From an uncultured Muribaculaceae bacterium (GTDB taxonomy: Bacteria; Bacillota_I; Bacilli_A; RF39; UBA660): 64,000 nt of DNA. Under the pieces are notes generated by a model, which saw only the letters and a list, made by a program, of their open reading frames with translations, was not told the DNA's origin and made no database searches. Shown here in pieces: positions 4,113-38,731 of this stretch. The DNA lies in assembly GCA_964529195.1 (NCBI GenBank), contig CAZGWM010000001.1, positions 19,294-83,293 on the forward strand. The letters are read 5' to 3'. A program made the translations under genes and the position numbers. Positions within the stretch are counted from its first letter, which is position 1. Each line of letters begins with the position of its first letter.

Positions 4113-4142
4113 ATAAAAAACCCAACTTATTTAGTTAGGTTT
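4113..4142 (-). terminator. probable terminator of nrnA
   Basis: Imperfect hairpin AACCCAACT-TATT-TAGTTAGGTT with a U-tract on the minus strand. Confidence 0.4.
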
Positions 4143-5101
4143 TCTTTATATTCTTTGCATCTTTGATCTAAATCATTAAATAACTTATCAACATTTTCTT
4201 CTTCTAAAATTCGAGCACCTGATGCAAATTTATGTCCTCCACCGTTATAGTTTGATGCAACATCGTTTATAATAGGTCCTCTACTTCTTATATTTATTTT
4301 GAACTGTTTAGTATTATTGTCATATGATGAAAATGCCCATGCATATATCCCTTTTATAAAGTTGAAATTATTTACCATGTTAGATGCGGCTGATGAATCT
4401 ACTTTAAATTCTTTTATTTCTTCTTCAGTTAATTTAATATAGCCAAATCCATTTTCAGTTACTATCATATTTAATGTTATAAATGATTGGAATTTAACTT
4501 CATTAAGTGGTCTTTCATATAAGTTATTATATAGTGTTTTTAAGTCTAATTTATATCTATCTATTATTTCACTCATTAGTTCAAATGTATGTGAGCTTGT
4601 TGTTGGTAGTAAAAATCTATCACTATCTGCAACAACACCAGTAAATAATTGAGATGCTACTATTTCATTCATCATTAGTTTACTTGAGTTTATTAAATCA
4701 AGCACTATTTCACTTGCTGATGATGCAGTTTCATCTATATAATCATACTTACCCATTGTTTGCTCGTATGGATGGTGATCTATTTTTAGTATTTCTTTAT
4801 ATTTTTCTTTATTTGCTCCATCTAATCTAGATAAATTAGGAAGATCAACTACAATTAGTAGTGCGTCTTTTACTTCTTCTTCATCTATTTTATCAAGTGT
4901 TCCTAGATGTTTAAATTTTGCAACACTTGCTCCTACTGCGTATACTTTTTTGTTTGGAAAAGTTAATCTTATTGAATCTCTTAATCCAAGCTGACTTCCA
5001 ACAGCATCAGGATCAGGTCCGATATGTCTTCCTATTACAATTGTTTCATATTCTTTTATTTTTTTATATATTTTTCTAAATGCTTTACTTTTATTATTCA
5101 A
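4127..5101 (-). CDS. nrnA: DHH/DHHA1 phosphoesterase, NrnA-type oligoribonuclease / pAp phosphatase
   Basis: DHH motif (IDHHPYEQ) and DHHA1 GGGH motif (NGGGHKFASGA). Confidence 0.8.
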   Translation of the reverse strand: MNNKSKAFRKIYKKIKEYETIVIGRHIGPDPDAVGSQLGLRDSIRLTFPNKKVYAVGASVAKFKHLGTLDKIDEEEVKDALLIVVDLPNLSRLDGANKEKYKEILKIDHHPYEQTMGKYDYIDETASSASEIVLDLINSSKLMMNEIVASQLFTGVVADSDRFLLPTTSSHTFELMSEIIDRYKLDLKTLYNNLYERPLNEVKFQSFITLNMIVTENGFGYIKLTEEEIKEFKVDSSAASNMVNNFNFIKGIYAWAFSSYDNNTKQFKINIRSRGPIINDVASNYNGGGHKFASGARILEEENVDKLFNDLDQRCKEYKENLTK

Positions 5102-5110
5102 ATGATCCTC

Positions 5111-6289: not shown

Positions 6290-6346
6290 TTTCTTTCTTC
6301 ACCTATTTGTAATTTTAACATATTAAATTTAAAAGTTCTATGAAAT

Positions 6347-7531
6347 CTAAAGGATACTTTCAAACTTCGTATCATTTGACGAAATTTTTATTACTTCAAT
6401 ATTTTGGATTGCTTCTTTTATCATTTCTTCATATGGAATATACTTTTCATATTTATATGCTTTACTTGAAACCGGATTTATTACAGGATGATCTGGAACA
6501 AATATAGTGCAGCAATCTTCATATGGAAGGATTGATATTTCATATGCACCAATTTCTTTGGATACATTTACAATATCAATTTTATCAAAACAAGAAAGTG
6601 GTCTTATAACTGGCATTTTCACTACTTCGTTTATAACACTCATGCTTGTTAAAGTTTGACTAGCAACTTGTCCAATTGACTCGCCATTAAATAATGCGCG
6701 CGCATTTATGTTTTTAGATACTTCCTCACTTATTCTATACATCATTCTTCTCATGATTGTTATCATATAATCATGTGGTATTTCTTTATAAATAGCTTCC
6801 TGGATTTTAGTGAAGTTTACAACATGAACATTTATATCTCCACCATACTTTGTTAATACTTTAGCTAAATCAAGGACTTTATTTTTAGCACTTTCACTTG
6901 TATGAGGGGGACTTTCAAAGTATATAGCACTTAACTTAACTCCTCTTTTAAGAGCATAAAAACCTGCTACCGGAGAATCAATTCCACCACTTAGCATTAG
7001 CATTCCTTTTCCTTGAACACCAACTGGATACCCACCCATACCTTTTATTTTATCAAAGTAAATATATACTTTATTATTTTGTCTTATTTCTATATTAATT
7101 AAAAGTTCAGGATTATGAACATCTACCTTAGATTCTTTATGTTCATCTAATATAGCACTTCCTAGTTTTCGGTTTACTTCCATACTATCAAGTGAATATT
7201 TTTTTTCACTTCTTTTAGTTTCTACTTTAAATGTTTTTATTTTTTTTTCTTTTAATAACTCTATTACTTTTTCTTTTATATGCTCAAAATTATTATCATA
7301 AAGTTCATATCCAACATTTATTTCATGAATTCCAAATATTTTAGTTAATTTATTTATTACTTCTTCATGGTTATTAGTATATATAAACATTCTACCTCGG
7401 TCTGAGATAATACTATGATTAATGTTTTTTAGATTTTCTTTTATATTTCTTTTTAGCAGATTAATAAAAAAAGATATATTCCCTTTTTTTGTAGTCAATT
7501 CTCCATATTTAATTATTATTAATTTTTCCAT
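6347..7531 (-). CDS. thiI: tRNA 4-thiouridine(8) synthase ThiI
   Basis: THUMP domain plus PP-loop (LMLSGGIDSPVAG); 394 aa. Confidence 0.85.
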   Translation of the reverse strand: MEKLIIIKYGELTTKKGNISFFINLLKRNIKENLKNINHSIISDRGRMFIYTNNHEEVINKLTKIFGIHEINVGYELYDNNFEHIKEKVIELLKEKKIKTFKVETKRSEKKYSLDSMEVNRKLGSAILDEHKESKVDVHNPELLINIEIRQNNKVYIYFDKIKGMGGYPVGVQGKGMLMLSGGIDSPVAGFYALKRGVKLSAIYFESPPHTSESAKNKVLDLAKVLTKYGGDINVHVVNFTKIQEAIYKEIPHDYMITIMRRMMYRISEEVSKNINARALFNGESIGQVASQTLTSMSVINEVVKMPVIRPLSCFDKIDIVNVSKEIGAYEISILPYEDCCTIFVPDHPVINPVSSKAYKYEKYIPYEEMIKEAIQNIEVIKISSNDTKFESIL

Positions 7532-22464: not shown

Positions 22465-23203
22465 CTCCTACTATTTCATTTATTAAATCTATATCATATC
22501 CTTTTTGATATAGTTTTTCTTTTACTACAAATTTTAATTTACTTGGTTCTACTTTATTAATTTGTTTTCTATATATTTTTTCATATTCTTTTTTAATAAA
22601 TTTATAATCATCCACTTCAATTTCATTTAAATAATTGATAAACATATCTTGATTATAACCTAGGTTAAATAAATAATTTGATATATTATTCTTAAGAATT
22701 TTTTTAGACATTTTATTATTTGCTTTTACTTTTTTATCAATTAGTTTAATTATTTTTTCACTAAAATCTTTATCAATTATTATGTTGTCTTTTATTCCCA
22801 GCTTAATTAATTCCCTTTTTATTTTTTCAGGTCCGTTATTTGTTAAGTTAAATTGATCATTAATATAACTTTCCATATATACTTTATCATTTAAATAACC
22901 TTGAGCTGTTAATTTTTTTATTGTTTCATCTATTATTTTATTTGAATGGTTGTGTTTTTTTAAGTATTTTTTTATTTCTAAAGTTGATCTTAATTTAGTA
23001 TTTAAATATTTTACAGATATATAATATGCTTCAATATTTTGATTTTCTTTTATTATTTCATCCATTTCATTTGAAGTTATTTCTTCTTTATTAAGAAGAT
23101 TATATTTTATGATTATATCTTCATATAAATCAACCTTGGAAGTATTATCAAATGTTAATTCATATTTACTATCTCTTATTTTTTTATATTTTATTATTTT
23201 CAT
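22457..23203 (-). CDS. recX: regulatory protein RecX
   Basis: Tandem three-helix RecX repeats (..YISVKYLNTKLRS..EIKKYLKK..; ..YINDQ..GPEKIKRELIKLGI..). Start taken at MKIIKYKK (ATG 23203) after SD AGAGGGA; the track's upstream ATG has no SD. Confidence 0.7.
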   Translation of the reverse strand: MKIIKYKKIRDSKYELTFDNTSKVDLYEDIIIKYNLLNKEEITSNEMDEIIKENQNIEAYYISVKYLNTKLRSTLEIKKYLKKHNHSNKIIDETIKKLTAQGYLNDKVYMESYINDQFNLTNNGPEKIKRELIKLGIKDNIIIDKDFSEKIIKLIDKKVKANNKMSKKILKNNISNYLFNLGYNQDMFINYLNEIEVDDYKFIKKEYEKIYRKQINKVEPSKLKFVVKEKLYQKGYDIDLINEIVGDE

Positions 23204-23259
23204 TTTTCCCTCTTTTTTATTATATCTTTTATAAAAAGAAGTAGCAACAAAAAACAAGT

Positions 23260-24633
23260 TTATTTTTTTTCACTTGTTTTTTTATTTTCTGGAGTTTTTT
23301 CTTTTGGTTCTTCCTTTTTTATTTTTAAATCTTCTATTTTCTCTTTTGGTTTATCTTTTTTTACTTCTTCTTTTCTTGGGCCTTTTTTTATTTTTTTTAG
23401 GTTTTTTGCTTGAAGAATACTTATAATAGTTATAAGCACTAGTAGCCCGCTTACTCCTGCTCCGATAATCATCATAATGTCTAATTTATTTAAGTTATAT
23501 AAATAATCTTCTTTATTAAATACTTGAAGAGTTTTATTTACTTTATCATAACTATAAAAGTTTTCTTCATTATTATTTGTATTGATTCCATAAATTATGT
23601 AGAATTTACTGTCATCTTTTATTTTTAAGATATTCAATTCTTCATTGTTAATATTTACTTTATAAGTTTTCATCCCTTTTAAAGTTTGATTATTATCAGG
23701 TACATATATATTAAGGGATTGTGAAGTAATATATATGAATTTATTTACTACTTTACCATTTTCAAATATATAATATGATCCATTTCCTTTTGAGTTTGTT
23801 GCATATATTATAGTTAATTTTAGTTTTGAATTATATAGTCCTTTTATTTCTTCTGAGTTTATTACTACTTCAACTTCATTAAAATTACTTGGAGTTTTTT
23901 CAGGTAATTTTCTTGCCACAAAAATATCTTCATCTTTATATTTTATTTTTATAGGATCTTTTTCTGGAACTGTTATTTTCAGTAAATAAGTTTTTAAAGC
24001 ACCATTTTCTGCTTTAACCGATACTTCAACTTCATTTTCTCCTTCAATTAGATCTATTAATCCAGTTCCAGAGACTGTTGCCTTATTATGATTTACTCTA
24101 GCAGATATATTTACTGAAGTTATTCCTGGATTAGTGATGAATATATATTCTAATTTATTTTTATCAAATTCTAGTTCATACCCTTCAACCTCAAGTGAAG
24201 ATAAACTATTATCTGATGAATAAACTTTATTTACTGGTTTTGATATAGTAACAGTTGTTCCAGATGATGAAGGATTTAAATGTTGAACAGTTTTAAAGTC
24301 TGCTATTGCGGCATTATTTATTGAAATGCTGGCCACACCTTCTGCTATTGCTCTAAATGTATATGAGTATGTTTTTACTTTGTATGAGCCATCTCCAGAA
24401 TCTGCTACTCCTGTTGCTCCACTAACTAAAGTTAATTTACTCGAGTCGTATGTTAAATTATATTGCCATGATCCTAATGTATCAGTACTACTTACTCTTA
24501 CTGTTACATTAAATGTATTATTTAAATTAACATATGACTGGCTACTTGAAGCAGTTATACTTCCTGTAGCAGCATATATTTTCAGCGGAAACAGCAATAA
24601 AAATGCAATTATTAATAATATTTTATTTTTCAT
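23260..24633 (-). CDS. membrane-anchored surface protein: signal peptide, cohesin-like domain, cadherin-like beta-sandwich domain, C-terminal TM helix and Lys/Glu-rich cytoplasmic tail
   Basis: N-terminal region ...SYVNLNNTFNVTVRVSSTDTLGSWQYNLTYDSSKLTLVSG...SYKVKTYSYTFRAIAEGVASISINNAAIADF... fits the cohesin fold pattern. Residues ~140-225 fit the cadherin-like (PF12733) pattern. TM helix IMMIIGAGVSGLLVLITIISIL then a KKIKKGPRKEEVKKDKPKEK... tail. Confidence 0.55.
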   Translation of the reverse strand: MKNKILLIIAFLLLFPLKIYAATGSITASSSQSYVNLNNTFNVTVRVSSTDTLGSWQYNLTYDSSKLTLVSGATGVADSGDGSYKVKTYSYTFRAIAEGVASISINNAAIADFKTVQHLNPSSSGTTVTISKPVNKVYSSDNSLSSLEVEGYELEFDKNKLEYIFITNPGITSVNISARVNHNKATVSGTGLIDLIEGENEVEVSVKAENGALKTYLLKITVPEKDPIKIKYKDEDIFVARKLPEKTPSNFNEVEVVINSEEIKGLYNSKLKLTIIYATNSKGNGSYYIFENGKVVNKFIYITSQSLNIYVPDNNQTLKGMKTYKVNINNEELNILKIKDDSKFYIIYGINTNNNEENFYSYDKVNKTLQVFNKEDYLYNLNKLDIMMIIGAGVSGLLVLITIISILQAKNLKKIKKGPRKEEVKKDKPKEKIEDLKIKKEEPKEKTPENKKTSEKK

Positions 24634-24642
24634 TTTATTCTC

Positions 24643-26610
24643 CTATTGTGATATTTTTGATATTCCTAGTATATGTTTTTGAATTATTAATAAGTCTAGT
24701 ATATCTATTTTTCCATCTTTATTTACATCGGTAGCTTCTTTATATACACCTGTTTTTAGTGTTACATTAAGGATGTGTTTTTGAGTTACTAGTAAATCTA
24801 GTATATCTACTTTACCATCTCCATTGTTATCACCATATTTAACTATTGTATATGTTTTAGTACCATTATTAGTTATTGTTATTTTATCTCCAGTTGCAAG
24901 TGTTTTGGTGTTGTTAATTGTTACTTTAGCCGATGGAACTTCATTTTTTAATAAAGTATTTAAAGCGCTTCCTGTATCAGGGATATTTTTACCACTTATA
25001 ATACTAGATTTATTATTAACACCGATTATTGATATTATATCATCTGGTGATAAGTTTGAAGACGCTACTTTATTTACATTTACTGTATATGTTGTTGTAT
25101 TACCAGCTGCAGCAGTTACAATTATTTTTAAAGCAGTGCTCGAGCCAGTTAGATTTTGTTTACCCACTCCTGATACAGTTGCTTTTGAGTTAGTTGCTTT
25201 TGCTGTAATTGTTACATTTGATGTAGATTCAGTTACTGAGCAGTCATAATTAACAGCATTTGGTGAAAATCCCGGCATTAAAGAACATCCCGTTACGCTT
25301 AATGAACTTAATGTTGCATCTTGATTCTCAGTAGAACTTAATGAAGTAGATGCAGGCATATTTCTAAAATAAGGGATTTTAAATGTATATGGAAGTGTTA
25401 GTACATTATTATTTTTATATGAATTATATGTTATTCCACTTTCGGTTCTTGGCGCTTCTATATTTTGCATGTATTGATGCCAAAATGTTGCTGGCGGAAC
25501 AACGTCAAATTTTTGAAAATAAATAGTATCTTGCCCAGGTGTGCCTCCTGGTCCATTATTTATATAACTATTTGATAATAATTTTGATCCTTCAATAATT
25601 GATTTTTTAGGTGTATTCCAATTTCTAGAACTGTTTGCAGCATATGCTAAACCATTAAGAATAATTTGAGCAGCTCCAGTTCCAGTTGCACCTATATTAA
25701 AGAAATTGTAATATCCAACATACTGCCCATTATATCCCTCACCTAAACTAAGAGATGATCCGTTTCTACTTTGCTCAACTAATACTCTACTTACTAAATG
25801 AACTGGATTTACTCCAGATGTGACTGCTGCTTCTTTAAATATTGCAAAGTAAGTCATTCCTGATTTTAAGTCTGTTCCAGACATAAATGTTCCATTTAAA
25901 ATAGAAGTTATTTCTTGATCGTAGTTCTTATTTTTATCATATGATAACTGCTCAAACATAAATATATGACTTTCATTAAAGAAGTTTCTTGGATCCATAA
26001 AATATCCGATTGTTTGCTTGCTTGCTGCATAACAACCATTATCAAATGTATACCATACTCCATTTCCAGCATAAGCTGCATCATCAGTACTTCTTAGTGA
26101 TGTATCACTGCTGCATATTAAGTTTCTACTTACTGAAGATGCTTCTTGATTAATTACATGTGACCAGTCATATCCAGTGTCAAAAAACACAAAGTTCCAG
26201 CTTGGATATTTAGTTTTTAATACAGCTAATTTTTGTGCATAACTATCGTTAAAACCTAAGTTTTTAAGTGCAGTTACAGTAGATGATGGTACTTCTATAT
26301 TTGAATTATCCTCAGGTGCTGATACTAAAGTTACCCATGAAGAACAAAGGTAACCTTTAGTTCCCTTATAATTAATATGGTACCAATTACTATCACACCC
26401 ATTTTTTGTTCCTGCATTTGTATTTAATATTTCTACTTCTGCTTTATATGATATTACTTGTATTACAATAGAATCAGAAGTTGTCGGTTTACTTCTTAGG
26501 TTAATTCCATTGGTTGATTCTATTATTCCAGTTGTTGCTGCTTTAACATTTTTAGGTATGATTATAAATGAAAAGATTAATAATAAAGTAATTATTTTCT
26601 TCATTAACAA
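24643..26610 (-). CDS. secreted peptidoglycan hydrolase: SH3b domain, family-73 N-acetylglucosaminidase domain, cadherin-like domain, C-terminal type-I dockerin
   Basis: Signal peptide; SH3b (GINLRSKPTTSDSIVIQVISYKAEVEIL); glucosaminidase motifs (...NGQYVGYYNFFNIG...GQDTIYFQKFDV); cadherin-like (DATLSSLSVTGCSLMPGFSPNAVNYD...TYTVNVNK); two dockerin repeats (DNNGDGKVDILDLLVTQKHIL / DVNKDGKIDILDLLIIQKHILG). Confidence 0.75.
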   Translation of the reverse strand: MLMKKIITLLLIFSFIIIPKNVKAATTGIIESTNGINLRSKPTTSDSIVIQVISYKAEVEILNTNAGTKNGCDSNWYHINYKGTKGYLCSSWVTLVSAPEDNSNIEVPSSTVTALKNLGFNDSYAQKLAVLKTKYPSWNFVFFDTGYDWSHVINQEASSVSRNLICSSDTSLRSTDDAAYAGNGVWYTFDNGCYAASKQTIGYFMDPRNFFNESHIFMFEQLSYDKNKNYDQEITSILNGTFMSGTDLKSGMTYFAIFKEAAVTSGVNPVHLVSRVLVEQSRNGSSLSLGEGYNGQYVGYYNFFNIGATGTGAAQIILNGLAYAANSSRNWNTPKKSIIEGSKLLSNSYINNGPGGTPGQDTIYFQKFDVVPPATFWHQYMQNIEAPRTESGITYNSYKNNNVLTLPYTFKIPYFRNMPASTSLSSTENQDATLSSLSVTGCSLMPGFSPNAVNYDCSVTESTSNVTITAKATNSKATVSGVGKQNLTGSSTALKIIVTAAAGNTTTYTVNVNKVASSNLSPDDIISIIGVNNKSSIISGKNIPDTGSALNTLLKNEVPSAKVTINNTKTLATGDKITITNNGTKTYTIVKYGDNNGDGKVDILDLLVTQKHILNVTLKTGVYKEATDVNKDGKIDILDLLIIQKHILGISKISQ

Positions 26611-26708
26611 CCACCTCTACTATATATAATTATAACATATTTTTATTTACTATAAATTATGGAGTAAACTTATTTACGACAAATAGACAAAAAAAGAGCA
26701 ACTGCTCT

Positions 26709-27005
26709 TTATAATTTTTCGATTACAGCAATGTTTTTTTCTAAACATCTAACTAAATCATCAGGATCATATTTAGCAAATACTTCACTAAACTTATCAG
26801 GATTTGTTAAAAACAAATGTGCGTGATTTAGTAATGCTTCTTTATGATTTTTGATTCTTGTTTTTTTAAGAGTATCATAATTAACTGCTACTACTTTTGG
26901 AAACAAAGTTAATTTCTCTTTTACTTCTTCAGAAAGTTTTGTTTCTAGTTGATTTAATTCTTCTTTAGTAAATCCAAGATCTAGTAAATATAACATATTA
27001 AACAC
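26709..27005 (-). CDS. hypothetical protein (98 aa), translationally coupled to the upstream coiled-coil protein gene
   Basis: ATG 27005 overlaps the upstream stop (26998); no family recognised by eye. Confidence 0.5.
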   Translation of the reverse strand: MFNMLYLLDLGFTKEELNQLETKLSEEVKEKLTLFPKVVAVNYDTLKKTRIKNHKEALLNHAHLFLTNPDKFSEVFAKYDPDDLVRCLEKNIAVIEKL

Positions 27006-28392
27006 TCCTTACATTTTCAGCTTGTTTTGCTTTACTTAGTAAATTAGTTATATCTGCTCCATTTAAATCTGTTCCAAGTGCAAGAGCAGCTTCTTCTAAA
27101 TGTTTAAGTTTAATTGTTGGAAGTACATCAAGTACATATCCAATATTACTTGGTTTTTGATTTGAATCTAATAATTTATTTACTATACCACTAAATTCTT
27201 CATAAGATATATCTGTTAGTACATTACTTGAGGTATATATACTGTTTAAATCTATTTTATTTTGATCTAATAGATCAAATACTTTTTTAAAGTTTTCATA
27301 GTTATAATTATTTCTTAATTTATCTTGAATATCTCTTTCAAATCTATTTACATCAAGTGCATATGACCTAAAGAATTCATCAATTGAGACTCTTTCAACT
27401 GTTTTAACTCCATCTTCTTTTATATCAGCATTTAATTCTTCTTCAGAAATAAATTCAGCTCCAAATATATCTGGAATGTTAAAATCATCAAATGAATTAG
27501 AGATACTTTCAACCATTGGTTCCTCTAACTTTTCTTCTTTTATAGGTTCCTCTAACTTTTCTTCTTTTATAGGTTCTTCTAATTTTTCTTCTATGATAGG
27601 GTTATTTAAATTGAGTTTATCTAATGTTTCAAGTGTTGGTAAGTCTTCTTCAAATACTTCTGGTAATGTATCTAACTTTTCTTCAACGCTTTCTTCTAAT
27701 TTGTTTAATTCTCTTGCTGTTTTTCTTAAACTTTCTAAAAAGTCATTTGTTTCTACTTCTTTTTTTTCTTCAATTGGTTTTGTTTCAACTACTTTTAAAT
27801 CTTTATCTAGTGATGCAATTTCATCAAAAACTTCTGTTTTAGGAGTATTTAATTTCTTTTTATTTTTTGCTTCTTTTCTTATAGCTAAATTACTGTGGTT
27901 TAATCTAGCATAATCAGAAAGTCTATTTAATTCTCTAGCGTAATACTCATGTGCATTTTTTAAATTTTCTAATCTTTCTTCTTTAGTAGCTTTATCTTTT
28001 TTTAAGTTTAAAAGTAAATCTTTTATACTTCTTGCTTTTTCAGTTAATTCAGCTATTGAATTATTATGATTTGATATTTTATCTTCTTTTTCTTCTATTT
28101 TAGAGTTTATTTCTTTATCTCCAGCTTCTACTACTGCAGTTAAATTCTTTGAGCCAAATTTATCTTGTAATAATCTTAAGTCTGCTCTTAGAGAATTTAT
28201 TTCTTCTTCTAACTCGGCTATTTGTTCTTTAGATAAATCTACTTCTACTTTATATTCTCTTGCTTCTTCTACTTTTTCGTTTATTTTTAAATTTACTTTT
28301 TCAAGTGATTGTTCTAATTCTTCTTTTTCTTTTAATAATTCCTTTAATATATTAGCTAATTTTTTATTAATATCTTCTATAATGGCTTTCAT
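26998..28392 (-). CDS. coiled-coil protein with an internal acidic tandem repeat (EEKLEEPIK x3) and a globular C-terminal domain
   Basis: 464 aa; N-terminal heptad-rich Glu/Lys/Leu coiled coil; 30-bp DNA tandem repeat at 27518-27607. Confidence 0.6.
   Translation of the reverse strand: MKAIIEDINKKLANILKELLKEKEELEQSLEKVNLKINEKVEEAREYKVEVDLSKEQIAELEEEINSLRADLRLLQDKFGSKNLTAVVEAGDKEINSKIEEKEDKISNHNNSIAELTEKARSIKDLLLNLKKDKATKEERLENLKNAHEYYARELNRLSDYARLNHSNLAIRKEAKNKKKLNTPKTEVFDEIASLDKDLKVVETKPIEEKKEVETNDFLESLRKTARELNKLEESVEEKLDTLPEVFEEDLPTLETLDKLNLNNPIIEEKLEEPIKEEKLEEPIKEEKLEEPMVESISNSFDDFNIPDIFGAEFISEEELNADIKEDGVKTVERVSIDEFFRSYALDVNRFERDIQDKLRNNYNYENFKKVFDLLDQNKIDLNSIYTSSNVLTDISYEEFSGIVNKLLDSNQKPSNIGYVLDVLPTIKLKHLEEAALALGTDLNGADITNLLSKAKQAENVRSV
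27518..27607. repeat. 30-bp tandem repeat x3 (third copy degenerate) inside the coiled-coil protein gene
   Basis: GGTTCCTCTAACTTTTCTTCTTTTATA occurs at 27518 and 27548, with a degenerate copy at 27578; it encodes the EKLEEPIKE repeats on the minus strand. Confidence 0.8.
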
Positions 28393-28474: not shown

Positions 28475-28906
28475 CTATGTGGCATTTTTTCTAGATATTT
28501 TAGAATATATTTCTTTATCATTTTCTTTTGTTTCTTTTATTTTTTTATTCATTTTATCTTTAATAGTATTTGAGTAACCAGTAAATGTTTCATCTCCAAT
28601 TATAGTATAGGGAACCCCCTTTACCTCTTCATTAAAATAAGATGCTACCTTTTCCATTAAAATATAGTTTTTTTCATTATACCAAACTTCAAATGAATAA
28701 ATATTAACATCTTTTTTATTTAAAGTTTTTAAATATTCTTTTTCTTTTTCACAATTAGGGCATCCCTCTCCCCAAAATAAGTATATATTTAATTTATCAT
28801 TATTTATATTAGAAGGACTCTCTTTAATAATAATATTTTTATTATTTAAAATAATTATTAATCCAGATAATATAATTGGTATTACTAGGAGTATTTTTTT
28901 ATTCAT
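28475..28906 (-). CDS. extracytoplasmic thioredoxin-like thiol-disulfide oxidoreductase (CPNC active site)
   Basis: N-terminal signal/TM then YLFWGEGCPNCEKEKEYLK (CxxC in thioredoxin-fold context); overlaps the upstream ASST gene by 8 nt. Confidence 0.6.
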   Translation of the reverse strand: MNKKILLVIPIILSGLIIILNNKNIIIKESPSNINNDKLNIYLFWGEGCPNCEKEKEYLKTLNKKDVNIYSFEVWYNEKNYILMEKVASYFNEEVKGVPYTIIGDETFTGYSNTIKDKMNKKIKETKENDKEIYSKISRKNAT

Positions 28907-30803
28907 TAAAATTCACGACTTTTCCACTATTATATATTTTATTATTTATTTTAATATATATAGAATATTTTCCGTTTAATCCTTTTTTATTAATATATTT
29001 AGTTACATTTATTCCTTCTTCTGTTTCTTCTTCAGTAAATATATCAACGCATAGGGCAGTATATGGCTTTTTACTTACCCTTATATCATATTCTTTTAAT
29101 GTTAAGTTTTTATATAATAATACTTTAACTTTATCTTCTCTTTTAAATACTCCAGAGATAGAAATTCTGTCTCCTTCATTTGTTATTTTTATTTCTTCAT
29201 CTAAAGAATTATTACTTAATTTTAAAGTTAATTTTCTTTTGTCTATTTTTGTTTTTTCAAATGAACCAAGTGTTTTTGGAGCATTTTTTTCGTATGTATC
29301 ATTTCCATATAAATTCATCTTTTCAACTCTATAATTATTTGTATTTAATTTTATTTCAAATATTATTTCATCATTTAAAAGCTCGACAGTATCTGACACT
29401 AATTTATCAGCTCCAATTAATCCAGCTGGGGTGTTTTGTATTTGACCATCTTTATAAACTATTCCACCGGAGTGAACTATGTAATGGTTTTTATTTATAT
29501 AATCAACATCAGAAATATAAGGCGAGTAAAATGATGATCCTCTTTCTTTTCCGTATTGCCAAATTTGTTTTATTTCCATTTTATTTGTATCTATTTCATA
29601 CATCACGCCTCTAGTGTAGCTATCTTTTGCTTTTACATATTCCTCTTTTATTTTAGATTTATTATTTCCATTATCAAGTATAAAAACATATCCCTCTGGT
29701 GTGATCATAGCAGCATGCTGACTCCATTGCCACTCTAAATCACCTGTTGGTTTAAAGAAATATTTCAGGTAATCTTTACTCCAGTTTGTATTATCTCCTA
29801 TTATCCAGTTTAAATTACCTGTATCATAATCTATATTTATTACTGCATCTTGATGTCTTCCAGATAATGTTATTGAATTTGTTTTTTTATCAAACCATAC
29901 TGAGTTATTATGAAACCAATCATAATCTACCCATCCTTCACTTTTAGCATCTTCCATATTAAGTATATTTTTTAAATCTATTCTTTTTATTTCTTTTCCA
30001 GTATTTCTATCTATTTCAACTATTATATCCTCAACAGTATCACCATTAAAATCATCAGTTGAAACTAGAAGATTACCATTTTCCATTTCAAAGTAATCAT
30101 GATGATATCCACCTTTTAATGTATATTCATTATATATTTTACCTAGTAAATCCATCTCATATAAACCTGTAGTGTAGTATGGTGGATTTAGCATTCTTTC
30201 AGTACTTAGCATTAATCTACCGTTTTTTAACTTATCTATTTTCCAAACTGAATTTATATTTAAGTACCATCTAACATCACCATTTATATCATATGCTGAT
30301 GTGTAACCTTTACTTGATGGAGTAAAGAAATATAATTCATTACCTAATTTATCTTTATTTGCGTATAAGTATGTTACCTTCGCTATATTTTCAGGTAATT
30401 TATCTGTTTTAATATAAATTGTTTTTTTTACGTTATTATAACTTATAATTACTTTGTTATTTTTATCTGGATAAAGTCCATATATTGGAAGATAATGTTT
30501 TTTATTTTTTTCAAATGTATGTGTAATTGTTGTTTTATCATCTTTTCCAGTAATAGTTACTTCAGGGGCAACTTCTTCTTCTGTTTCAAATATTATAAGC
30601 GCTGTAAGTGGTGATATTTCATATGGATTTAATATTACTTTAGGATTAGTTATATTATATCCTTTTGATGTTATGTTTTTATTAATTTCTATTTGTTTTA
30701 AAACTAAATTATCTTTTAATAATATTTCTTTATTAGTATTTTTATAATTTAAATAAAATAAAGGTAGTATTATTAATATGATAATTATTATATATTTTTT
30801 CAT
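28899..30803 (-). CDS. arylsulfotransferase (ASST, PF05935-like) family beta-propeller protein, secreted or membrane-anchored
   Basis: N-terminal TM/signal; motifs resembling ASST (GGYHHDYFEMENGNLLVS, VDYDWFHNNSVWFD, ITPEGYVFILDNGNN); start at ATG 30803 after SD AAGAGGA. Confidence 0.5.
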   Translation of the reverse strand: MKKYIIIIILIILPLFYLNYKNTNKEILLKDNLVLKQIEINKNITSKGYNITNPKVILNPYEISPLTALIIFETEEEVAPEVTITGKDDKTTITHTFEKNKKHYLPIYGLYPDKNNKVIISYNNVKKTIYIKTDKLPENIAKVTYLYANKDKLGNELYFFTPSSKGYTSAYDINGDVRWYLNINSVWKIDKLKNGRLMLSTERMLNPPYYTTGLYEMDLLGKIYNEYTLKGGYHHDYFEMENGNLLVSTDDFNGDTVEDIIVEIDRNTGKEIKRIDLKNILNMEDAKSEGWVDYDWFHNNSVWFDKKTNSITLSGRHQDAVINIDYDTGNLNWIIGDNTNWSKDYLKYFFKPTGDLEWQWSQHAAMITPEGYVFILDNGNNKSKIKEEYVKAKDSYTRGVMYEIDTNKMEIKQIWQYGKERGSSFYSPYISDVDYINKNHYIVHSGGIVYKDGQIQNTPAGLIGADKLVSDTVELLNDEIIFEIKLNTNNYRVEKMNLYGNDTYEKNAPKTLGSFEKTKIDKRKLTLKLSNNSLDEEIKITNEGDRISISGVFKREDKVKVLLYKNLTLKEYDIRVSKKPYTALCVDIFTEEETEEGINVTKYINKKGLNGKYSIYIKINNKIYNSGKVVNFNE

Positions 30804-30876
30804 ATTATTCCTCTTTTCTAAGTTTAATTTAAAATAAAAAAAAAGAATAAACAATAACTTATAAGTTGAAAAAAAT

Positions 30877-31533
30877 TCAACTCATGGTTGAACTGCACAT
30901 ATTATCCATATTTATCGGAATATTATAGGAAGATATTTTATTATTACTATCGAGTGTATTAATCTGAATGAATAATTTAGAGTCTTTACATGATAGTTTA
31001 TAATCATCTATATAATAAGATAAATGTTCTAAATAATATGAAAGAGTTAAGTCTTTTTCTTTTGAAGTTGCTATTTTTTTATCTATATTTTTAAAAGATT
31101 CATATAGAGTGGATGTTATTTCTTTATATACTGTTTCATCTTGATTTCCGCAATATTCTACTTTTGATATATGAATTGTTGATTTGTTTAAAAGAGTTAC
31201 TACACTTCCATATATATTAAAGTCAGTGCAGTTTGATGTTACATTTTTAAATGTATATTTATTTTTAAAAATAAATATAGAAAGTAATATAATAATAAAA
31301 GGTATTACAATTAATAAATATTTTTTCTCTTTTTTCTTTTTTGATCCAAGTAATATATTTATATCAATATTATAGGTGTCACTTATTTTTTTTATTATTT
31401 CTATATCTGGAATATTTGTTTTATTTTCCCATTTTGAAACTGCTTGATGAGTTACATTTAACTCATCTGCTAAATCTTTTTGAGTTAGGTTATTTTTTTT
31501 TCTTATTTCTTTAATTATTTTATCAATTTCCAT
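30877..31533 (-). CDS. membrane-anchored XRE-family HTH transcriptional regulator
   Basis: HTH_3 (LTQKDLADELNVTHQAVSKWENKTNIPDIEIIKKIS) then a TM helix (LLIVIPFIIILLSIFIF) and a ~130-aa extracellular domain with several Cys. Confidence 0.65.
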   Translation of the reverse strand: MEIDKIIKEIRKKNNLTQKDLADELNVTHQAVSKWENKTNIPDIEIIKKISDTYNIDINILLGSKKKKEKKYLLIVIPFIIILLSIFIFKNKYTFKNVTSNCTDFNIYGSVVTLLNKSTIHISKVEYCGNQDETVYKEITSTLYESFKNIDKKIATSKEKDLTLSYYLEHLSYYIDDYKLSCKDSKLFIQINTLDSNNKISSYNIPINMDNMCSSTMS

Positions 31534-31632: not shown

Positions 31633-33543
31633 ATGAAAAATAAAAAGATGTTTATAATTTTTTCAATACTTATGTACTTAGAGTTAGTATATCATTTCTT
31701 TATATTTAAGACTTTTGATTTCAAAAGTTTCTTTTTTACGTTAATTTTTACTTTTTTTACATCTTATTTTATTCATTTAATAAGTAATTTATTTTCTTAT
31801 AAAATAAATAAGTATATTATGCACTTAATTATTATTCTTTTTATAATTTTATTTGAAGCTCAGTTTATTAATTATTTATTTTACGGAAATATATTATCTA
31901 TTTACTCAATTTTAAATGGTGGTCAAGTATTTGAATATTTTAATCAAATTTTAATGGTTATTTTTAGTAATTTTATTCCGGTCTTATTATTTTTACTTCC
32001 ACTTTTATATATTAAAAACATTAATAAAAAGATATTTATTGAAGATAAAGATAATTTAAATAAAATATTTAGTATTTTATTGTTAATAAGTTTATATTTA
32101 TTAACAGTTATTTCACTTAATTTTGATAAAAATAGTATGTACTCAGCTAAGAAGTTATATTTTGAAAAAAACGCTCCAAATGAAAATGTTAAAACATTTG
32201 GTTTACTAACTACAATGAAGTTAGATATTCAAAGAACTTTTATAGGATTTGAAGAAGATATAAAAGAAGAAGATATAAAAGAAGAAGAAATTATTAAAGA
32301 TGAATATAACATATTAGATATTGATTTTAATGAGTTAATTCAAAATGAAAGTAATACTAATATAAATAATATACACTCATATATAAAAAACTCCCCCGCT
32401 TCACTTAAAAATGAATATACGGGTATGTTTGAAGGTTATAATTTAATATATATTGTAGCTGAGGCATTTAGCCCGATTGCTGTTGATGAGGTGTTAACGC
32501 CTACTTTATATAAACTTTATAATAATGGTTTTAAATTTAATAATTTTTATACTCCTATTTATTATGTAAGTACTAGTGATGGTGAGTACTCTACTTTAAC
32601 TAGTTTACTTCCAAAAGAAAATGTTTGGAGTATGTCTAAATCTAGCGTTAATTATTTACCATATACATTTGGCAATATATTTAATAATTTAAATTATAAT
32701 AGTTATGCTTTTCATAACGGAACATATAGATACTATAACAGGCATAAATCACATCCAAATATGGGATATGATTTTATGGCATGTGGTAATGGTTTAAAAA
32801 TAAATTGTAAGTTATGGCCCCAAAGTGATCTAGAAATGATTGATGCTACTTTTGATAAGTACTCAGATGATGATTTATTTATGACATATTATTTAACTGT
32901 AAGTGGTCATTTAGAATATAATTTTGGTGGTAATAATATGTCTTATAAAAATAAAGATGCCGTAAAAGATATCCCTTACAGTGATTCTATTAAAGCTTAT
33001 ATGGCTGCTCAAATTGAGCTTGATAAAGCGCTTGAGAGTCTAATAAATAATCTTGATGAAAAAGGCATTTTAGATAATACAGTAATTATGCTATCAGCAG
33101 ATCATTATCCTTATGGTTTAAAATTATCTGAAATAAAAGAAAAAATGAATATTGAAAATGAAAAGTTTGATATTCATAAGAATCACTTCTTCATTTGGAA
33201 TAATAAAATGGAAAATACAATTGAAGTTAATAAATATGCCTCTAGCTTAGATATACTTCCAACTGTTCTTAATTTATTTAATATAGAGTTTGATTCTAGA
33301 TTATTAATCGGAAGAGATATACTCTCACCTGGTGATGGTCTTGTTATATTTAATGATCGAAGCTGGCTTAATGAAAATGGATTATACGATTCTTCTAAAA
33401 AAGAATTTAAAGCATTTAAAGATGTAAGTGATAATTATATAGAAAGTATTAATAATAATGTTTATAATAAATTTGTTGTTTCAAGAAATATTCTTGATTA
33501 TGATTATTATAAATTTGTTTTAGGAGGTAATGATGGAAGTTAA
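31633..33543 (+). CDS. ltaS: LTA synthase family protein (LtaS-type polyglycerolphosphate synthase / sulfatase-fold)
   Basis: Five N-terminal TM helices then an extracellular sulfatase-like domain (...YNLIYIVAEAFSP...LSADHYPYGL...); 636 aa. Confidence 0.75.
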   Translation: MKNKKMFIIFSILMYLELVYHFFIFKTFDFKSFFFTLIFTFFTSYFIHLISNLFSYKINKYIMHLIIILFIILFEAQFINYLFYGNILSIYSILNGGQVFEYFNQILMVIFSNFIPVLLFLLPLLYIKNINKKIFIEDKDNLNKIFSILLLISLYLLTVISLNFDKNSMYSAKKLYFEKNAPNENVKTFGLLTTMKLDIQRTFIGFEEDIKEEDIKEEEIIKDEYNILDIDFNELIQNESNTNINNIHSYIKNSPASLKNEYTGMFEGYNLIYIVAEAFSPIAVDEVLTPTLYKLYNNGFKFNNFYTPIYYVSTSDGEYSTLTSLLPKENVWSMSKSSVNYLPYTFGNIFNNLNYNSYAFHNGTYRYYNRHKSHPNMGYDFMACGNGLKINCKLWPQSDLEMIDATFDKYSDDDLFMTYYLTVSGHLEYNFGGNNMSYKNKDAVKDIPYSDSIKAYMAAQIELDKALESLINNLDEKGILDNTVIMLSADHYPYGLKLSEIKEKMNIENEKFDIHKNHFFIWNNKMENTIEVNKYASSLDILPTVLNLFNIEFDSRLLIGRDILSPGDGLVIFNDRSWLNENGLYDSSKKEFKAFKDVSDNYIESINNNVYNKFVVSRNILDYDYYKFVLGGNDGS

Positions 33544-35442: not shown

Positions 35443-38400
35443 GTATGTCTACATTTAAGTTAAGTTCGTTTACTTCGATGTTTGTATTTAAATTTTCTTT
35501 TTTATCTATATTAAGAGCAAGTGTTTCTTCTTTTATATAGTCTTTAAATAGATCAAACATTTTTTCACATGTTGAATTTGTTTCATAATATATATTAATT
35601 CTATCTGTTATTTCAAAGTTTAATTCTTTTCTTAAATTTTGAACTTTACTTACAAATTCTCTAGCCAAACCTTCTAAGTGTAATTCTTCAGTGATTTCAG
35701 TATTTAATATTACGAAGTCATTATTATATGTACCTACATTTAATCCTTCTTTTGATGATATTTTTACTTCAACCATATTTTTATTTACTAATATTTCTTC
35801 ATTATCTAAATTAATTTTTATTTCTTTATTATTTTGAAGTTTTGTTATATCTTCACTTGTTAATTTTTCTAATTCTTTAGCAAATAAATTTATTTTACTT
35901 CCAAATACTTTACCTACTTCTCTAAAGTTTGGTTTTACTGATAAATTCATATATGTATTTAAATCATCTACATATATTATTTCTTTTACGTTTAGTTCTT
36001 CTTTTATTAATTCAGTTAGTTCATCTATTATTTTTTCATTTTTGCGATCTAAAAGTATTTCTTTGAGTGGTTGGCGAACTTTTATTTTAGATTCTTCTCT
36101 AACCATTCTTCCAATACTTATTAAGTTTCTTACAAGATCCATTTTTTCTTCTAATTTTTCATCTATTAATGATTCATCATATACTGGAAAGTCAGCTAAA
36201 TGAACAGATTCACTACCAGTTAATTTTTGGTATATTTCCTCTGATATAAATGGTGTTATAGGCGCAATCATTTTACATAAGTTAGTTAGTACTTCGTGAG
36301 TTGTTAAGTAAACTGATTTTTTAGAATTATCAAGTTCACTTCCCCAAAAACGATATCTATTTCTTCTTATATACCAGTAAGATCATATTCTTCATAACTT
36401 TTAGTTACATATTTAAGTAATGCGTGATATTTAGATAATATCCATTTATCAATATCTTCTCTATCTTCATATGGAACATCAAATTCATTTACATTTACTC
36501 CATCTGTGTTTGCATACATTTGGAAAAATGAATATGTATTTTTAAGTGGATTAAAGAATTTTGAGTATACTTCTTTTAATCCTTCATAATCAAATCTTAG
36601 TGGCATCCATACAGGTGAGACATATGGCATATAAAATCTTACTACATCTGCTCCATATTCTTCCATTAATTCAAATGGTTCGATTATGTTTCCTCTACTT
36701 TTACTCATTTTTTTACCTTCAGAGTCTACTAGTAAATCATTTACTAATACATTTTTATATGGAGCTCTTCCAGTTACAAATGTTGATATTAATAAAAGTG
36801 TATAAAACCATCCTCTTGTTTGATCTATTCCTTCACATATAAAATCAGCAGGAAATTGTTTATCAAATATTTCTTCATTATTAAATGGAAAGTGATATTG
36901 AGCAAAAGGCATTGATCCCGAGTCAAACCAGCAATCTATTACTTCTGGAACTCTTTTCATATGTTTATTACATTTAGAGCACTTTAATAAAACATCATCT
37001 ACATATGGTCTGTGAAGATCAATTGAGTTATCAATTTTATTAACTGATTTTTCAATTAATTCTTCTTTTGAACCAATCATTTCTTCATGACCGCATTCAC
37101 ATTTCCATAATGGTAGTGGCGTTCCCCAGTATCTTTCTCTTGATATAGCCCAGTCATTCATATTTTCAAGCCAGTTTCCAAATCTTTTTTCTCCAACATG
37201 TTTTGGATACCAATTTACTTTTTTATTTTCTTTTATTACTTTATCTTTTATTTTTGTTACTTCAAGATAATAACTTGGTTTTGAATAATATATTAATTGA
37301 CTTTGACATCTCCAGCAGTGTGGATAATTATGTGTTATTCTTTGTTTTTTAAATAATTTATCATTTTCTCTTAAGTATTTTATTATTTCAAGATCTGCAT
37401 CAAATACAAGCATGTCTTTCCATGGGCCTTCTGTGTAGGTTCCATCTTCTCCAACTGGATTTAAAACTGGAAGATTATATTTTCTTCCTACTTCATAGTC
37501 ATCTTGACCAAAAGCAGGAGCCATATGAACTATTCCTGTTCCATCTTCCATACTTACAAAATCAGCAAGCGTAATAAAGAATGCTTCTTTATCAGGTTTT
37601 ATAAATGGAAGTAGTTGGTTATATTTTTTATTTTCTAAATCTTTTCCTAAATAAGTATCTAAAACCTCAAAATCATCTCCTAAAAGAGTTTTAGATAGCT
37701 TTTTAGCTACAATAAAGTTATTTCCTTGTGATGATACTTTGACATATTCTTCTCTTGGATTAACTGCAAGGGCAACGTTTGCCATTAGAGTCCAAGGAGT
37801 AGTTGTCCAAACTAAAAAGTTTGCATCTAGTTCTTCTGAATAAAAGGGAACAATTACTGTATCTACTGGTACTTCTTTATAACCTTGAGCTACTTCATGA
37901 GTAGCAAGTCCAGTTCCACATCTTGGGCAGTAAGGTAATATTTTATGACCTTGATAAAATAATCCTTCTTCAAAAAATTTCTTTAAGATCCACCACTCTG
38001 TTTCGATATAATTATCATGATATGTTACATATGGATTATCCAGATCAATAAACTGTCCCATTTTGGTAGTTAGTTTAGAAAATAGCTCTTCATTTTTCCA
38101 TACACTTTCTCTACATTTTTGGTTAAACTCTGCTATTCCATATTTTTCTATATCTGATTTTGAGGTAAATCCCAATTCTTTTTCAACTTCAAGTTCAACA
38201 GGAAGACCGTGCGTGTCCCATCCTATTTTACGATATACTTTATATCCTTGCATTGTTTTATATTTACAAAATGAATCTTTTAAAAATTTTGCAAGCATAT
38301 GATGAAGTCCAGGATAACCATTTGCAGTAGCTGGGCCATCATAAAATACCCAGTATTTATCTCTGTTTTTAATTGATTTTTCGAAAATATTATTTTCTTC

Positions 38401-38469
38401 CCAGTATTTTGAGTAAGATGCTTCGACATCTTTTACTGCTTTTTTGTTTAATTCTTCATATTTTTTCAT
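35429..38469 (-). CDS. ileS: isoleucine--tRNA ligase, reading frame interrupted near 36300-36370 (track ORFs 36367-38469 and 35429-36271 lie in different frames)
   Basis: N-part has HIGH (PATANGYPGLHHM), editing-domain and KMSKS (KMSKSRGN) motifs and ends ...SYEEYDLTGI*. The C-part frame is open upstream as ...YIRRNRYRFWGSELDNSKKSVYLTTHEVLTNLCKMIAPITPFISEEIYQ (IleS anticodon-binding/C-terminal region). By alignment to IleS from memory, ~17-18 residues are missing at the junction. Confidence 0.8.
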
Positions 38470-38731
38470 ATTTCCTCCTAAAAAAAATCCATAAATTAAA
38501 GGACGAGCAAAACCCGTGGTACCACCTTAATTCATGAATTTCATGCGCTTAATTCTCGTAACGTGAGTTATTCGTTTTTTCCTTATCAGAAAAACACATC
38601 AGAAGTGATTTTTAATTATCTTATATGCTTATCTTTCACCACCTGTAAGCTCTCTTTAATACAGTTATAATTAACGTCTTCATCTCTTGCTTTGTAAAAC
38701 TAATTATATTATTTCTTTACTTTTTTGTCAA
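38470..38731 (-). promoter_or_regulatory. ileS promoter and T-box riboswitch leader
   Basis: On the minus strand: TTGACA (38731-38726), 17-nt spacer, TATAAT (38708-38703). Leader contains the T-box consensus AATTAAGGTGGTACCACGGG (RC of 38513-38532), a U8 tract, then SD AGGAGG before ATG 38469. Candidate specifier region is ...GAAAGAUAAGC... (possible AUA Ile codon). Confidence 0.75.

Follow-up and report, generated by a model that had tools for sequence, protein, structure and literature searches.

A stretch of 64,000 nucleotides from an uncultured bacterium (contig CAZGWM010000001.1, forward-strand positions 19,294 to 83,293; the whole stretch is called the window and all positions are counted from its first letter) carries on its minus strand a two-gene cassette that, in our reading, probably tethers a peptidoglycan glucosaminidase to the membrane of the cell producing it through cohesin–dockerin docking. 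The first gene encodes a predicted secreted enzyme of glycoside hydrolase family 73 (GH73) with a C-terminal dockerin, and the gene directly 3′ of it encodes a predicted membrane anchor with an N-terminal cohesin. This reading, drawn from sequence and structure comparisons, is carried by the domains of the two proteins, the conserved catalytic residues, the adjacency of the genes, the conservation of the pair across many genomes and the covariation of the dockerin with the N-terminal domain of the neighbouring anchor.

A predicted GH73 glucosaminidase with a C-terminal dockerin

The open reading frame (ORF) of the enzyme runs uninterrupted for 655 codons from a TTG codon and occupies exactly 24643..26610 of the minus strand. 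Two codons inside it, the ATG at 26604 is preceded at a distance of 7 nucleotides by the ribosome-binding site (RBS) GAGGTGG, and a public protein that is 100% identical to the enzyme (P0001) has a length of 653 amino acids. Because of this better-spaced RBS and the length of the public protein, the ATG is most likely the true start. A homology search returned thousands of full-length homologues in which the dockerin was kept, and therefore the ORF represents a real gene.

For the dockerin, Pfam Dockerin_1 scored 53.4 bits, compared with a gathering cut-off of 22.9, over the full model (1–57 of 57), and it was matched in all 22 enzyme relatives scanned. The two Ca-loop motifs, DNNGDGKVDILD (residues 594–605) and DVNKDGKIDILD (residues 628–639), contain the loops DNNGDGKVD and DVNKDGKID, respectively, and are accompanied by the helices ILDLLVTQKHIL and ILDLLIIQKHIL. 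Both the enzyme sequence and the profile of its family matched dockerins in the PDB, and in a Foldseek search the dockerin model was superimposed on the Clostridium thermocellum Xyn10B dockerin (1ohz_B) with a template modelling (TM) score of 0.92 and a root mean square deviation of 0.9 Å over 55 columns, and on 2ccl_B with a TM-score of 0.87. The two repeats (residues 594–614 and 628–648) were identical at 16 of 21 positions. Type I dockerins are known for a dual binding mode, and such symmetry would be compatible with it. A six-frame regular-expression scan for a second paired Ca-loop (D.[ND].[DN]G.[IVL]...D) gave none in the window outside the enzyme ORF.

The central region of the enzyme is, as judged from homology, a GH73 glucosaminidase. 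Its best NCBIfam match was the Staphylococcus aureus glucosaminidase SagB (E = 4.3e-13), and phmmer with the single enzyme sequence matched the solved GH73 domains of AtlE, the AtlA glucosaminidase (AtlA-GL) and SagB (E = 1.9e-10 to 6e-8). With the family profile, the matches in the PDB became stronger (AtlE 1.8e-20, SagB 3.9e-19 and 1.1e-18, AtlA-GL 2.2e-18, and C. perfringens Acp, 5wqw, 5e-10). The top four Foldseek matches of the AlphaFold model of the enzyme were GH73 structures, among them SagB in complex with SpdC (6u0o_B, the first), AtlA-GL (6fxo) and SagB (6fxp), with E-values from 5e-7 for 6u0o_B to 2.5e-5 and target TM-scores of 0.41–0.50. In the alignment to AtlE, E279 paired with the Glu that was mutated to Ala in entry 4pi8 (HALVETG versus HALVATG), and both E279 and Y380 were invariant in the 22 relatives. 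The N-terminal part of the catalytic region bears the invariant motifs DPRNF and FMFE in the family alignment.

The signal peptide of the enzyme is a prediction from reading the sequence and the family alignment. SH3_3, the Pfam family of the SH3b module, was matched in 11 of the 22 family members, and the family profile also matched the C. perfringens SH3 structures 2kt8 and 2krs. Directly before the dockerin lies a module designated X, which formed a conserved block in the family alignment and was modelled by AlphaFold2 (AF2) with a predicted local distance difference test (pLDDT) value of 70–89 (mean over the whole enzyme model, 73). No Pfam family was assigned to X in the scan of the enzyme, and a hidden Markov model (HMM) built from it found X mainly in the loci nearest to the window, the signal being weak or undetected in many distant ones.

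An earlier note on this DNA (the original prediction) had read the ORF at 24643–26610 as an unusual autolysin in which a signal peptide, an SH3b module, an N-acetylglucosaminidase domain, a cadherin-like domain and a dockerin with two Ca loops follow one another. The order of signal peptide, SH3b, cadherin-like domain and dockerin agreed with our Pfam scan and, for the signal peptide, with our own reading; the two-loop dockerin was recovered by Pfam, by the motif scan and by Foldseek; and the glucosaminidase domain was recovered by NCBIfam, phmmer, the family profile and Foldseek, with the quoted stretch YFQKFDV lying inside it at residues 364–370. The ORF is real, as claimed, with the correction that translation probably begins two codons after the TTG, and all listed modules are present, with X (residues 517–590) having been overlooked. 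A Pfam scan had been proposed there as the check, with failure to place the GH73 or dockerin domain as the refutation. It placed the dockerin, SH3_3 and the cadherin-like module, whereas the GH73 domain was not seen by PF01832; taken as a refutation, it would wrongly fail GH73, because the Pfam model misses this subfamily.

The downstream gene encodes a predicted membrane anchor with a cohesin

The gene directly 3′ of the enzyme on the minus strand (457 codons) is the proposed partner, which the original prediction overlooked. The two genes are separated by a spacer of only 9 nucleotides, and the RBS of the anchor overlaps the stop codon of the enzyme, which suggests co-transcription and coupled translation of both. 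A consensus scan gave no terminator-like site between them on the minus strand.

The N-terminal domain of the anchor is a predicted cohesin, and this assignment holds at the level of the family. Pfam Cohesin was matched in 13 of 27 diverse anchor relatives at E ≤ 0.01 (best, 4.6e-9); several relatives carry a precomputed PF00963 annotation, and one is called a ‘cohesin domain-containing protein’ by NCBI. The best true PDB matches of the anchor family profile were all cohesins (3l8q at 1.5e-4, 5g5d at 1e-3, 2y3n and 4u3s). Likewise, the best single-domain Foldseek targets of the anchor model were cohesins, namely C. acetobutylicum CohA2 (6kgc_A, TM-score 0.59) and a non-cellulosomal cohesin of Archaeoglobus fulgidus (2xdh, TM-score 0.56).

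The AF2 model of the whole anchor had a pLDDT of 84.5 and ended in a C-terminal helix. PF12733, the cadherin-like family, was matched in 27 of 27 anchor family members. The beta-rich C-terminal domain (CTD) of the ectodomain was conserved across loci, as seen with its module HMM, and no Pfam match to it was obtained in the window protein or in the relatives scanned; it is presumed to be a spacer or stalk between membrane and cohesin. When the anchor profile was searched against 1.84 billion representatives, 28,059 matches were returned, a number that was swamped by giant proteins with dozens of cadherin-like repeats and gives no family size.

The cadherin-like modules of the enzyme (25069–25311) and the anchor (23968–24216) are close paralogues, with reciprocal HMM matches of 1e-13 to 1e-20; the HMM from the module of the anchor matched that of the enzyme at 1e-20. 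This similarity suggests that the module was duplicated inside the cassette or that enzyme and anchor touch at a second site.

Conservation of the two-gene unit

When each GTDB species was represented by one genome, a scan with the enzyme gave at least 600 matches. The best 80 of these were all uncultured metagenome-assembled genomes (MAGs) from gut or rumen, with labels such as Bacilli, ‘Tenericutes’, Erysipelotrichaceae, Clostridium sp. CAG:710 or CAG:628, Lachnospiraceae, Oscillospiraceae, Acutalibacteraceae, Ruminococcaceae or Clostridia. In the homology search, the same architecture was present in 3538 matches among 8000 scored candidates. The word ‘unusual’ in the original prediction is thus apt in comparison with characterised autolysins and does not hold for gut metagenomes, in which the architecture is common.

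For counting the cassette, we took 83 non-redundant loci and searched all their ORFs with per-module HMMs made from the enzyme and anchor alignments. A dockerin was present in 80 of the 83 enzymes, and two of the three exceptions were cut off by contig ends. An anchor gene followed immediately 3′ on the same strand in 75 of the 79 loci having room downstream, and 73 of these 75 anchors bore a strong C-terminal hydrophobic segment. The order coiled-coil gene, enzyme, anchor, RecX and PrsA was kept in three different genomes with 42–49% identity, and L001–L004 showed the same order; the flanking genes of the window were common to only the ~12 closest loci. In a very abundant lineage, whose cluster comprises 12,641 sequences, YfhO/glycosyltransferase genes and ClpC enclose the pair instead. 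Since the flanks differ between lineages, the conserved unit is the two genes themselves.

A few loci departed from this arrangement. The enzyme of L077 (at 4974–7025 of that locus) lacked a dockerin, and the 5 kb downstream of it contained no anchor gene. Another type of dockerin (helices of the form D[AS]L.I..Y..G) was present in L071, L072 and L083, again with no adjacent anchor. These four loci serve as natural controls. In L062, in which the enzyme gene lies at 4899–6983, the downstream anchor was replaced by an upstream protein (3536–4963, plus strand) in which SH3b and a cohesin are combined with Cys-rich repeats and with two Ca-loop segments of dockerin-like type (GDANGDGAISSKDIVRLKNYL, twice); by its domains this protein resembles an adaptor bound to the wall and not a membrane anchor. 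L079 had a second dockerin protein nearby. In addition, relatives found with a Ruminococcaceae query, including P0423, P0428 and P0430, were shorter paralogues of ~516 amino acids with SH3_3 and Cadherin-like domains and no precomputed dockerin match. One 516-residue paralogue lies on a contig of 173,869 bp, and the contig of a 666-residue homologue, with no precomputed dockerin match, also measures 173,869 bp; tethered and untethered versions of the enzyme may coexist.

The dockerin covaries with the N-terminal domain of the anchor

Distances between dockerins were compared with those between other domains by Mantel tests on 69 complete enzyme–anchor pairs with 999 permutations. The dockerin was correlated with the N-domain of its partner at r = 0.62, whereas its correlations with the GH73 and cadherin-like domains of its own polypeptide were 0.28 and 0.24, respectively. 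The partner correlation remained at 0.58 in a partial Mantel test controlling for GH73 (p = 0.001) and at 0.55 controlling for the anchor CTD. For a control pair, the cadherin-like domain of the enzyme and the N-domain of its partner, r was 0.12. The dockerin therefore tracks a domain of the other chain better than it tracks its own chain, which fits the prediction for a binding interface. These values and the adjacency in 75 of 79 loci, together with the membrane-anchored cohesin encoded next door, support the proposal of the original prediction that the dockerin adds a protein-mediated layer of localization.

The sequences of the dockerin helices followed the same pairing. Anchors whose N-domain matched the cohesin HMM were paired with dockerins bearing helices of the form (I/V)LDLLK(V/I)QKHIL. 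At seven loci (L014, L037, L052, L064, L068, L073 and L075) the helices were of the form (A)xDYxKIKNHIM, and the anchors of these loci had a shorter N-domain (~95 amino acids) with no Pfam cohesin and at most weak BatD/Ig-like matches. As far as can be read from these sequences, the receptor of this sub-lineage could have been remodelled or exchanged, with the dockerin adapting alongside it. Four further loci, labelled Lachnobacterium, Roseburia, Clostridiaceae and Firmicutes CAG:145 (L025, L027, L031 and L084), were missed by the cohesin HMM, yet gave weak Pfam Cohesin matches.

Gene organization and genomic neighbourhood

The features of the cassette and of its immediate upstream region are listed in Table 1.

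Table 1. Positions of the cassette features and of adjoining elements in the window.
Feature	Residues	Position	Strand	Evidence or remark
Enzyme gene, secreted SH3b–GH73–cadherin-like–X–dockerin	653 (from ATG 26604)	24643..26604	-	
Enzyme, predicted signal peptide MKKIITLLLIFSFIIIPKNVKA		26539..26604	-	Predicted cleavage after VKA; sequence reading and conserved hydrophobic N-terminus in family alignment
Enzyme, SH3b (Pfam SH3_3), cell-wall-binding type	35–93	26332..26508	-	E 2e-9
Enzyme, GH73-type N-acetylglucosaminidase region	105–425	25336..26298	-	Core like AtlE/SagB at 250–411
Enzyme, catalytic Glu (predicted)	E279	25774-25776	-	Alignment to AtlE
Enzyme, Tyr of QY(M)QN motif	Y380	25471-25473	-	Family alignment
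Enzyme, cadherin-like beta-sandwich (PF12733)	434–514	25069..25311	-	E 1e-8
Enzyme, X module, ~74 amino acids, alpha/beta	517–590	24841..25062	-	Directly before dockerin
Enzyme, type I dockerin (PF00404)	592–648	24667..24837	-	Pfam Dockerin_1, E 3e-14
Enzyme/anchor junction TAGGAGAATAAAATG		24634..24648	-	9-nt spacer; AGGAG RBS overlapping enzyme stop codon
Anchor gene, signal peptide–cohesin–cadherin-like–beta-rich CTD–transmembrane helix–Lys/Glu-rich tail	457	23260..24633	-	
Anchor, signal peptide	1–21	24571-24633	-	
Anchor, cohesin (PF00963)	22–135	24229..24570	-	
Anchor, cadherin-like	140–222	23968..24216	-	Weak Pfam match for window protein
Anchor, beta-rich ectodomain (CTD)	225–372	23518..23961	-	AF2 pLDDT ~90, all-beta
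Anchor, transmembrane helix IMMIIGAGVSGLLVLITIISIL	386–407	23413..23478	-	
Anchor, Lys/Glu-rich tail, 50 amino acids		23263-23412	-	21 K/R, 11 D/E
Promoter-like TTTATA-16-TATAAT with TG extension		26629..26656	-	Consensus scan; ~25 nt 5′ of start codon
Terminator-like hairpin AAAGAGCAGTTGCTCTTT followed by T-run		26693..26710	-	Consensus scan only; end of upstream 98-aa gene
98-aa gene	98	26709-27005	-	Overlaps coiled-coil gene
Acidic coiled-coil protein gene	464	26998-28392	-	Without Pfam family

The hairpin at 26693..26710 is likely the 5′ boundary of the transcription unit; terminator-like sites were found 6 times by the consensus scan, compared with 1.1 expected. For the promoter-like site the evidence is weak, since the AT-rich sequence yields matches of this kind no more often than chance would (47 found, compared with 47.4 expected from shuffles). 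Two plus-strand ORFs lying over the gene, at 24326–24682 and 24824–25249, were rejected as antisense shadow ORFs with no coding evidence.

The cassette is surrounded by chromosomal housekeeping genes (DnaE, Ffh, PrsA, RecX and an LtaS-like gene) and not by phage genes. The G+C content varied between 20 and 30% along the window with no break in composition at the locus, and megablast against PLSDB gave no plasmid match for 23000–27000. A larger operon, including the coiled-coil and 98-aa genes upstream and RecX downstream, was considered and discarded, because outside the ~12 closest loci these neighbours are not conserved. The coiled-coil gene contains a tandem repeat of 27 bp × 3.1 copies at 27518–27600, which encodes EEKLEEPIK repeats. 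In L004 and L005 this gene and the 98-aa gene form one fused ORF, and both are kept in the closest relatives only.

Further upstream, at 28475–30854 (minus strand), the gene of an arylsulfotransferase that is secreted or membrane-bound (ASST, PF05935, E = 5e-94) overlaps that of a small thioredoxin-like protein, a pairing of ASST with a Dsb-like oxidoreductase. A gene for a Cro/CI-type helix-turn-helix regulator (30877–31533) adjoins this pair, and 31633–33543 on the plus strand encodes a protein of 636 amino acids with a C-terminal Sulfatase domain, LtaS-like in appearance. A T-box leader (Rfam RF00230, 106.6 bits) was found at 38496–38695 on the minus strand, 5′ of a gene for a protein of 700 amino acids (36367–38469) that is presumably an aminoacyl-tRNA synthetase. 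In the abundant lineage mentioned above (L085–L090), genes for a Sulfatase-family protein, YfhO and a family 2 glycosyltransferase lie just 5′ of the cassette, and YfhO also lies upstream of it in L001; the cassette is thus repeatedly close to envelope-polymer genes.

Discussion

The model we consider probable is as follows. The first gene would give a secreted GH73 β-N-acetylglucosaminidase with an N-terminal SH3b module and a C-terminal type I dockerin, and the second, probably co-transcribed with it, a type I membrane protein that spans the membrane with one helix and ends in a charged cytoplasmic tail. Both proteins would be exported, and the anchor would stay in the membrane by its C-terminal helix. 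The cohesin would thereby be presented at the tip of an ectodomain of ~350 residues made of four beta-rich modules, with the cadherin-like module and the beta-rich domain (~230 residues together) holding it off the membrane. The dockerin, folded around Ca2+, would plug into this cohesin, so that the enzyme would stay on the cell that makes it and be limited to those wall layers that the tether can reach. SH3b would engage peptidoglycan, and GH73 would cleave glycan strands only within that reach. The predicted role is that of a housekeeping autolysin, acting either in the trimming and release of glycan strands near the membrane or in septum splitting and separation of daughter cells; such action on the own wall is the likeliest role because those characterised enzymes that are nearest to it serve as housekeeping autolysins. 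What we infer here from the domains and the comparisons described above is the binding, the topology in the membrane, the specificity of the enzyme and its physiological role.

Several points count against this model or lower the confidence in its parts. The Pfam Cohesin match of the anchor in the window (residues 37–113, E = 2e-4, 21.9 bits) was just under the cut-off of 24.1 bits, and the structural likeness to cohesins was moderate (TM-scores 0.56–0.59); the latter values are moderate because a multi-domain model was searched. PF01832 (Glucosaminidase) matched neither the enzyme nor its 22 relatives at E ≤ 0.01, which we attribute to limited sensitivity of the Pfam model for this subfamily because PDB structures are matched. 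Where the ‘YATD’ motif of GH73 has its Asp, the family has an invariant Asn (QYMQN versus QYASD/QYATD), and the AF2 confidence in the catalytic core was moderate (pLDDT 42–84 over residues 250–400). The shared history of adjacent genes could inflate their covariation, and partial Mantel tests lower this effect rather than remove it. The assignment of the enzyme as an autolysin acting on its own wall is drawn from homology to Atl and SagB, the census of dockerins and cohesins covers the 64-kb window of the genome, and our literature search found no functional or comparative study of the GH73–dockerin–cohesin combination and no binding, activity or localization data for any member.

Some of the same evidence would fit other explanations. 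The anchor might display GH73 outside the cell as a surface weapon, a ‘lyticome’ that lyses neighbours for competition or for scavenging of peptidoglycan. The domains of the enzyme fit this idea equally well, dockerin-bearing lysozymes and DD-carboxypeptidases of the rumen have been read as means of attack or defence (PMC6487960), and a cohesin–dockerin ‘lyticome’ has been put forward in a review (PMC6403190). However, an anchor in the membrane of the producer with ~350 ectodomain residues would place the complex within or under its own wall, a single cassette is conserved across many lineages and shows no conserved immunity-like neighbour, and the closest characterised relatives, AtlE, AtlA, SagB and Acp, are housekeeping autolysins; we therefore regard a weapon as unlikely. 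It seems more doubtful still that the true partner of the dockerin is encoded elsewhere, for instance as a multi-cohesin scaffoldin like those of cellulosomes or amylosomes, and that the adjacent N-domain is only cohesin-like. The sub-threshold cohesin score of the window protein, the dockerins without adjacent anchor in L071, L072 and L083, the other upstream cohesin protein in L062, the second dockerin protein in L079 and a view confined to 64 kb of the genome would all be compatible with a distant partner, but enzyme and anchor genes lie side by side at 75 of 79 loci from two bacterial classes, the dockerin covaries with the N-domain of the anchor far more than with its own polypeptide, the helix motif of the dockerin switches together with the type of that N-domain, and the window contains no further dockerin or cohesin. 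Moreover, for R. bicirculans only one of each, dockerin and cohesin, is reported, and both are linked to GH73 (PMC4611034).

A cell-adhesion device, in which SH3b and GH73 would grip the peptidoglycan of a sister or neighbour cell and the dockerin–cohesin–cadherin-like chain would link it to the membrane, the enzyme serving mainly as a wall-binding adaptor, has very little in its favour. Both proteins do bear paralogous cadherin-like modules, and peptidoglycan binding is a property of SH3b as well as of the GH73 cleft; the invariance of the catalytic Glu and Tyr nevertheless argues for retained catalysis, and nothing in the analysis supports adhesion. The least probable of all, to the point of being effectively refuted, is a prophage or phage-derived lysin that acquired its dockerin by chance. 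Weak PHROGs matches to ‘tail associated cell-wall hydrolase’ (E = 3e-8) concerned the GH73 domain alone, whereas the three neighbouring proteins scanned had no PHROGs match, the cassette is flanked by RecX, PrsA, DnaE, Ffh and an LtaS-like gene, neither an anomaly of composition nor a plasmid match was seen, and the position of the cassette is stable within lineages. A cellulosome or amylosome complex was likewise rejected, with one cohesin and one dockerin in the 64 kb and housekeeping genes as neighbours; the window contains no carbohydrate-active enzymes for plant polysaccharides.

The GH73–dockerin–cohesin combination is not without precedent. Just one dockerin and just one cohesin associated with a GH73 enzyme were described for R. 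bicirculans by Ze et al. 2015, citing Wegmann et al. 2014 (PMC4611034), and a dockerin-bearing GH73 is listed for R. albus genomes (PMC4081043). The likeness of R. bicirculans to the present locus, namely GH73 with a lone dockerin and a lone cohesin, is taken from the description in the citing paper, and MAGs of Ruminococcaceae and Oscillospiraceae do carry the cassette. The difference is that the former is a remark on a genome annotation, at least as cited there, whereas the present locus comes from MAGs labelled Bacilli with 25% G+C, another class-level lineage. A homology search with a Ruminococcaceae member as the query returned no entry named R. bicirculans.

The closest functional resemblance is to SagB–SpdC (6U0O), the ‘peptidoglycan release complex’, which is likewise a membrane-held GH73 with a membrane partner and a conserved catalytic Glu. 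SagB controls the length of glycan strands; it is held by an N-terminal membrane anchor of its own, and SpdC, its partner, is polytopic and CAAX-protease-like. In the cassette, by contrast, the enzyme has a cleavable-looking signal peptide ending in VKA, the attachment would be in trans through dockerin and cohesin, and the partner is a predicted single-pass protein, so that the cassette is not a member of the SagB–SpdC type. Classical GH73 autolysins, such as Enterococcus faecalis AtlA with LysM, Listeria monocytogenes Auto with GW, Streptococcus pneumoniae LytB with choline-binding repeats and C. perfringens Acp with SH3, are similar to the present enzyme as secreted GH73 proteins with a non-catalytic wall-targeting module (here SH3b). 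They are localized by wall polymers only, whereas here a protein receptor encoded next door is added; Atl-type enzymes have GW/R repeats and are not known to use a protein receptor.

Docking of dockerin and cohesin beyond the degradation of plant cell walls is also seen in the GH84 toxin complexes NagH/NagJ of C. perfringens (2OZN, 2JNK), the amylosome of R. bromii and the cohesin of A. fulgidus (2XDH), and the enzyme family profile weakly matched the NagH dockerin fragment 2jnk. In those systems secreted enzymes are joined together or on scaffoldins against an external substrate, whereas here one enzyme and one membrane anchor form a conserved two-gene cassette with peptidoglycan as the predicted substrate. 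With the anchoring scaffoldins SdbA and OlpB of C. thermocellum and ScaE of R. flavefaciens, the anchor shares a single envelope-fixed cohesin that receives a dockerin protein; it differs in having neither wall attachment by S-layer homology (SLH) or LPXTG motifs nor a hierarchy of scaffoldins. Cohesin proteins with a C-terminal transmembrane helix have been catalogued as ‘nonSLH-anchoring’ scaffoldins (PMC11557425). The cassette is not mechanistically surprising beside the non-cellulosomal pairs, and its interest lies in the adjacent cohesin anchor, the breadth of the cassette and the covariation.

The placement of wall hydrolases in Gram-positive bacteria is usually credited to the binding of wall polymers through LysM, SH3b, GW, choline-binding modules or teichoic acids. 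The cassette points to another, genetically simple solution, a dedicated membrane protein as the receptor, made from the high-affinity plug-and-socket pair of the cellulosome. It offers an account, open to testing, of the ‘orphan’ dockerins and cohesins that have long been noted in non-cellulolytic bacteria, and its pairs are naturally co-evolved and presumably orthogonal dockerin–cohesin sets that could serve the engineering of protein display. A broader and more tentative idea is that the cassette represents a housekeeping use of cohesin and dockerin, far commoner than cellulosomes in gut Firmicutes and possibly ancestral to them, in which a tethered glucosaminidase assembled in trans would carry out SagB-like processing of nascent strands or splitting of the septum. 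Co-evolving pairs would keep each interaction private, including those of the sub-lineage with a replaced or remodelled Ig-like receptor and a matching new dockerin helix. Hundreds of gut genomes at species level carry the cassette, among them uncultured lineages of very high abundance; if the tethering model is true, it would be a common and overlooked form of autolysin control, and perhaps the commonest natural use of the cohesin–dockerin pair in the human gut.

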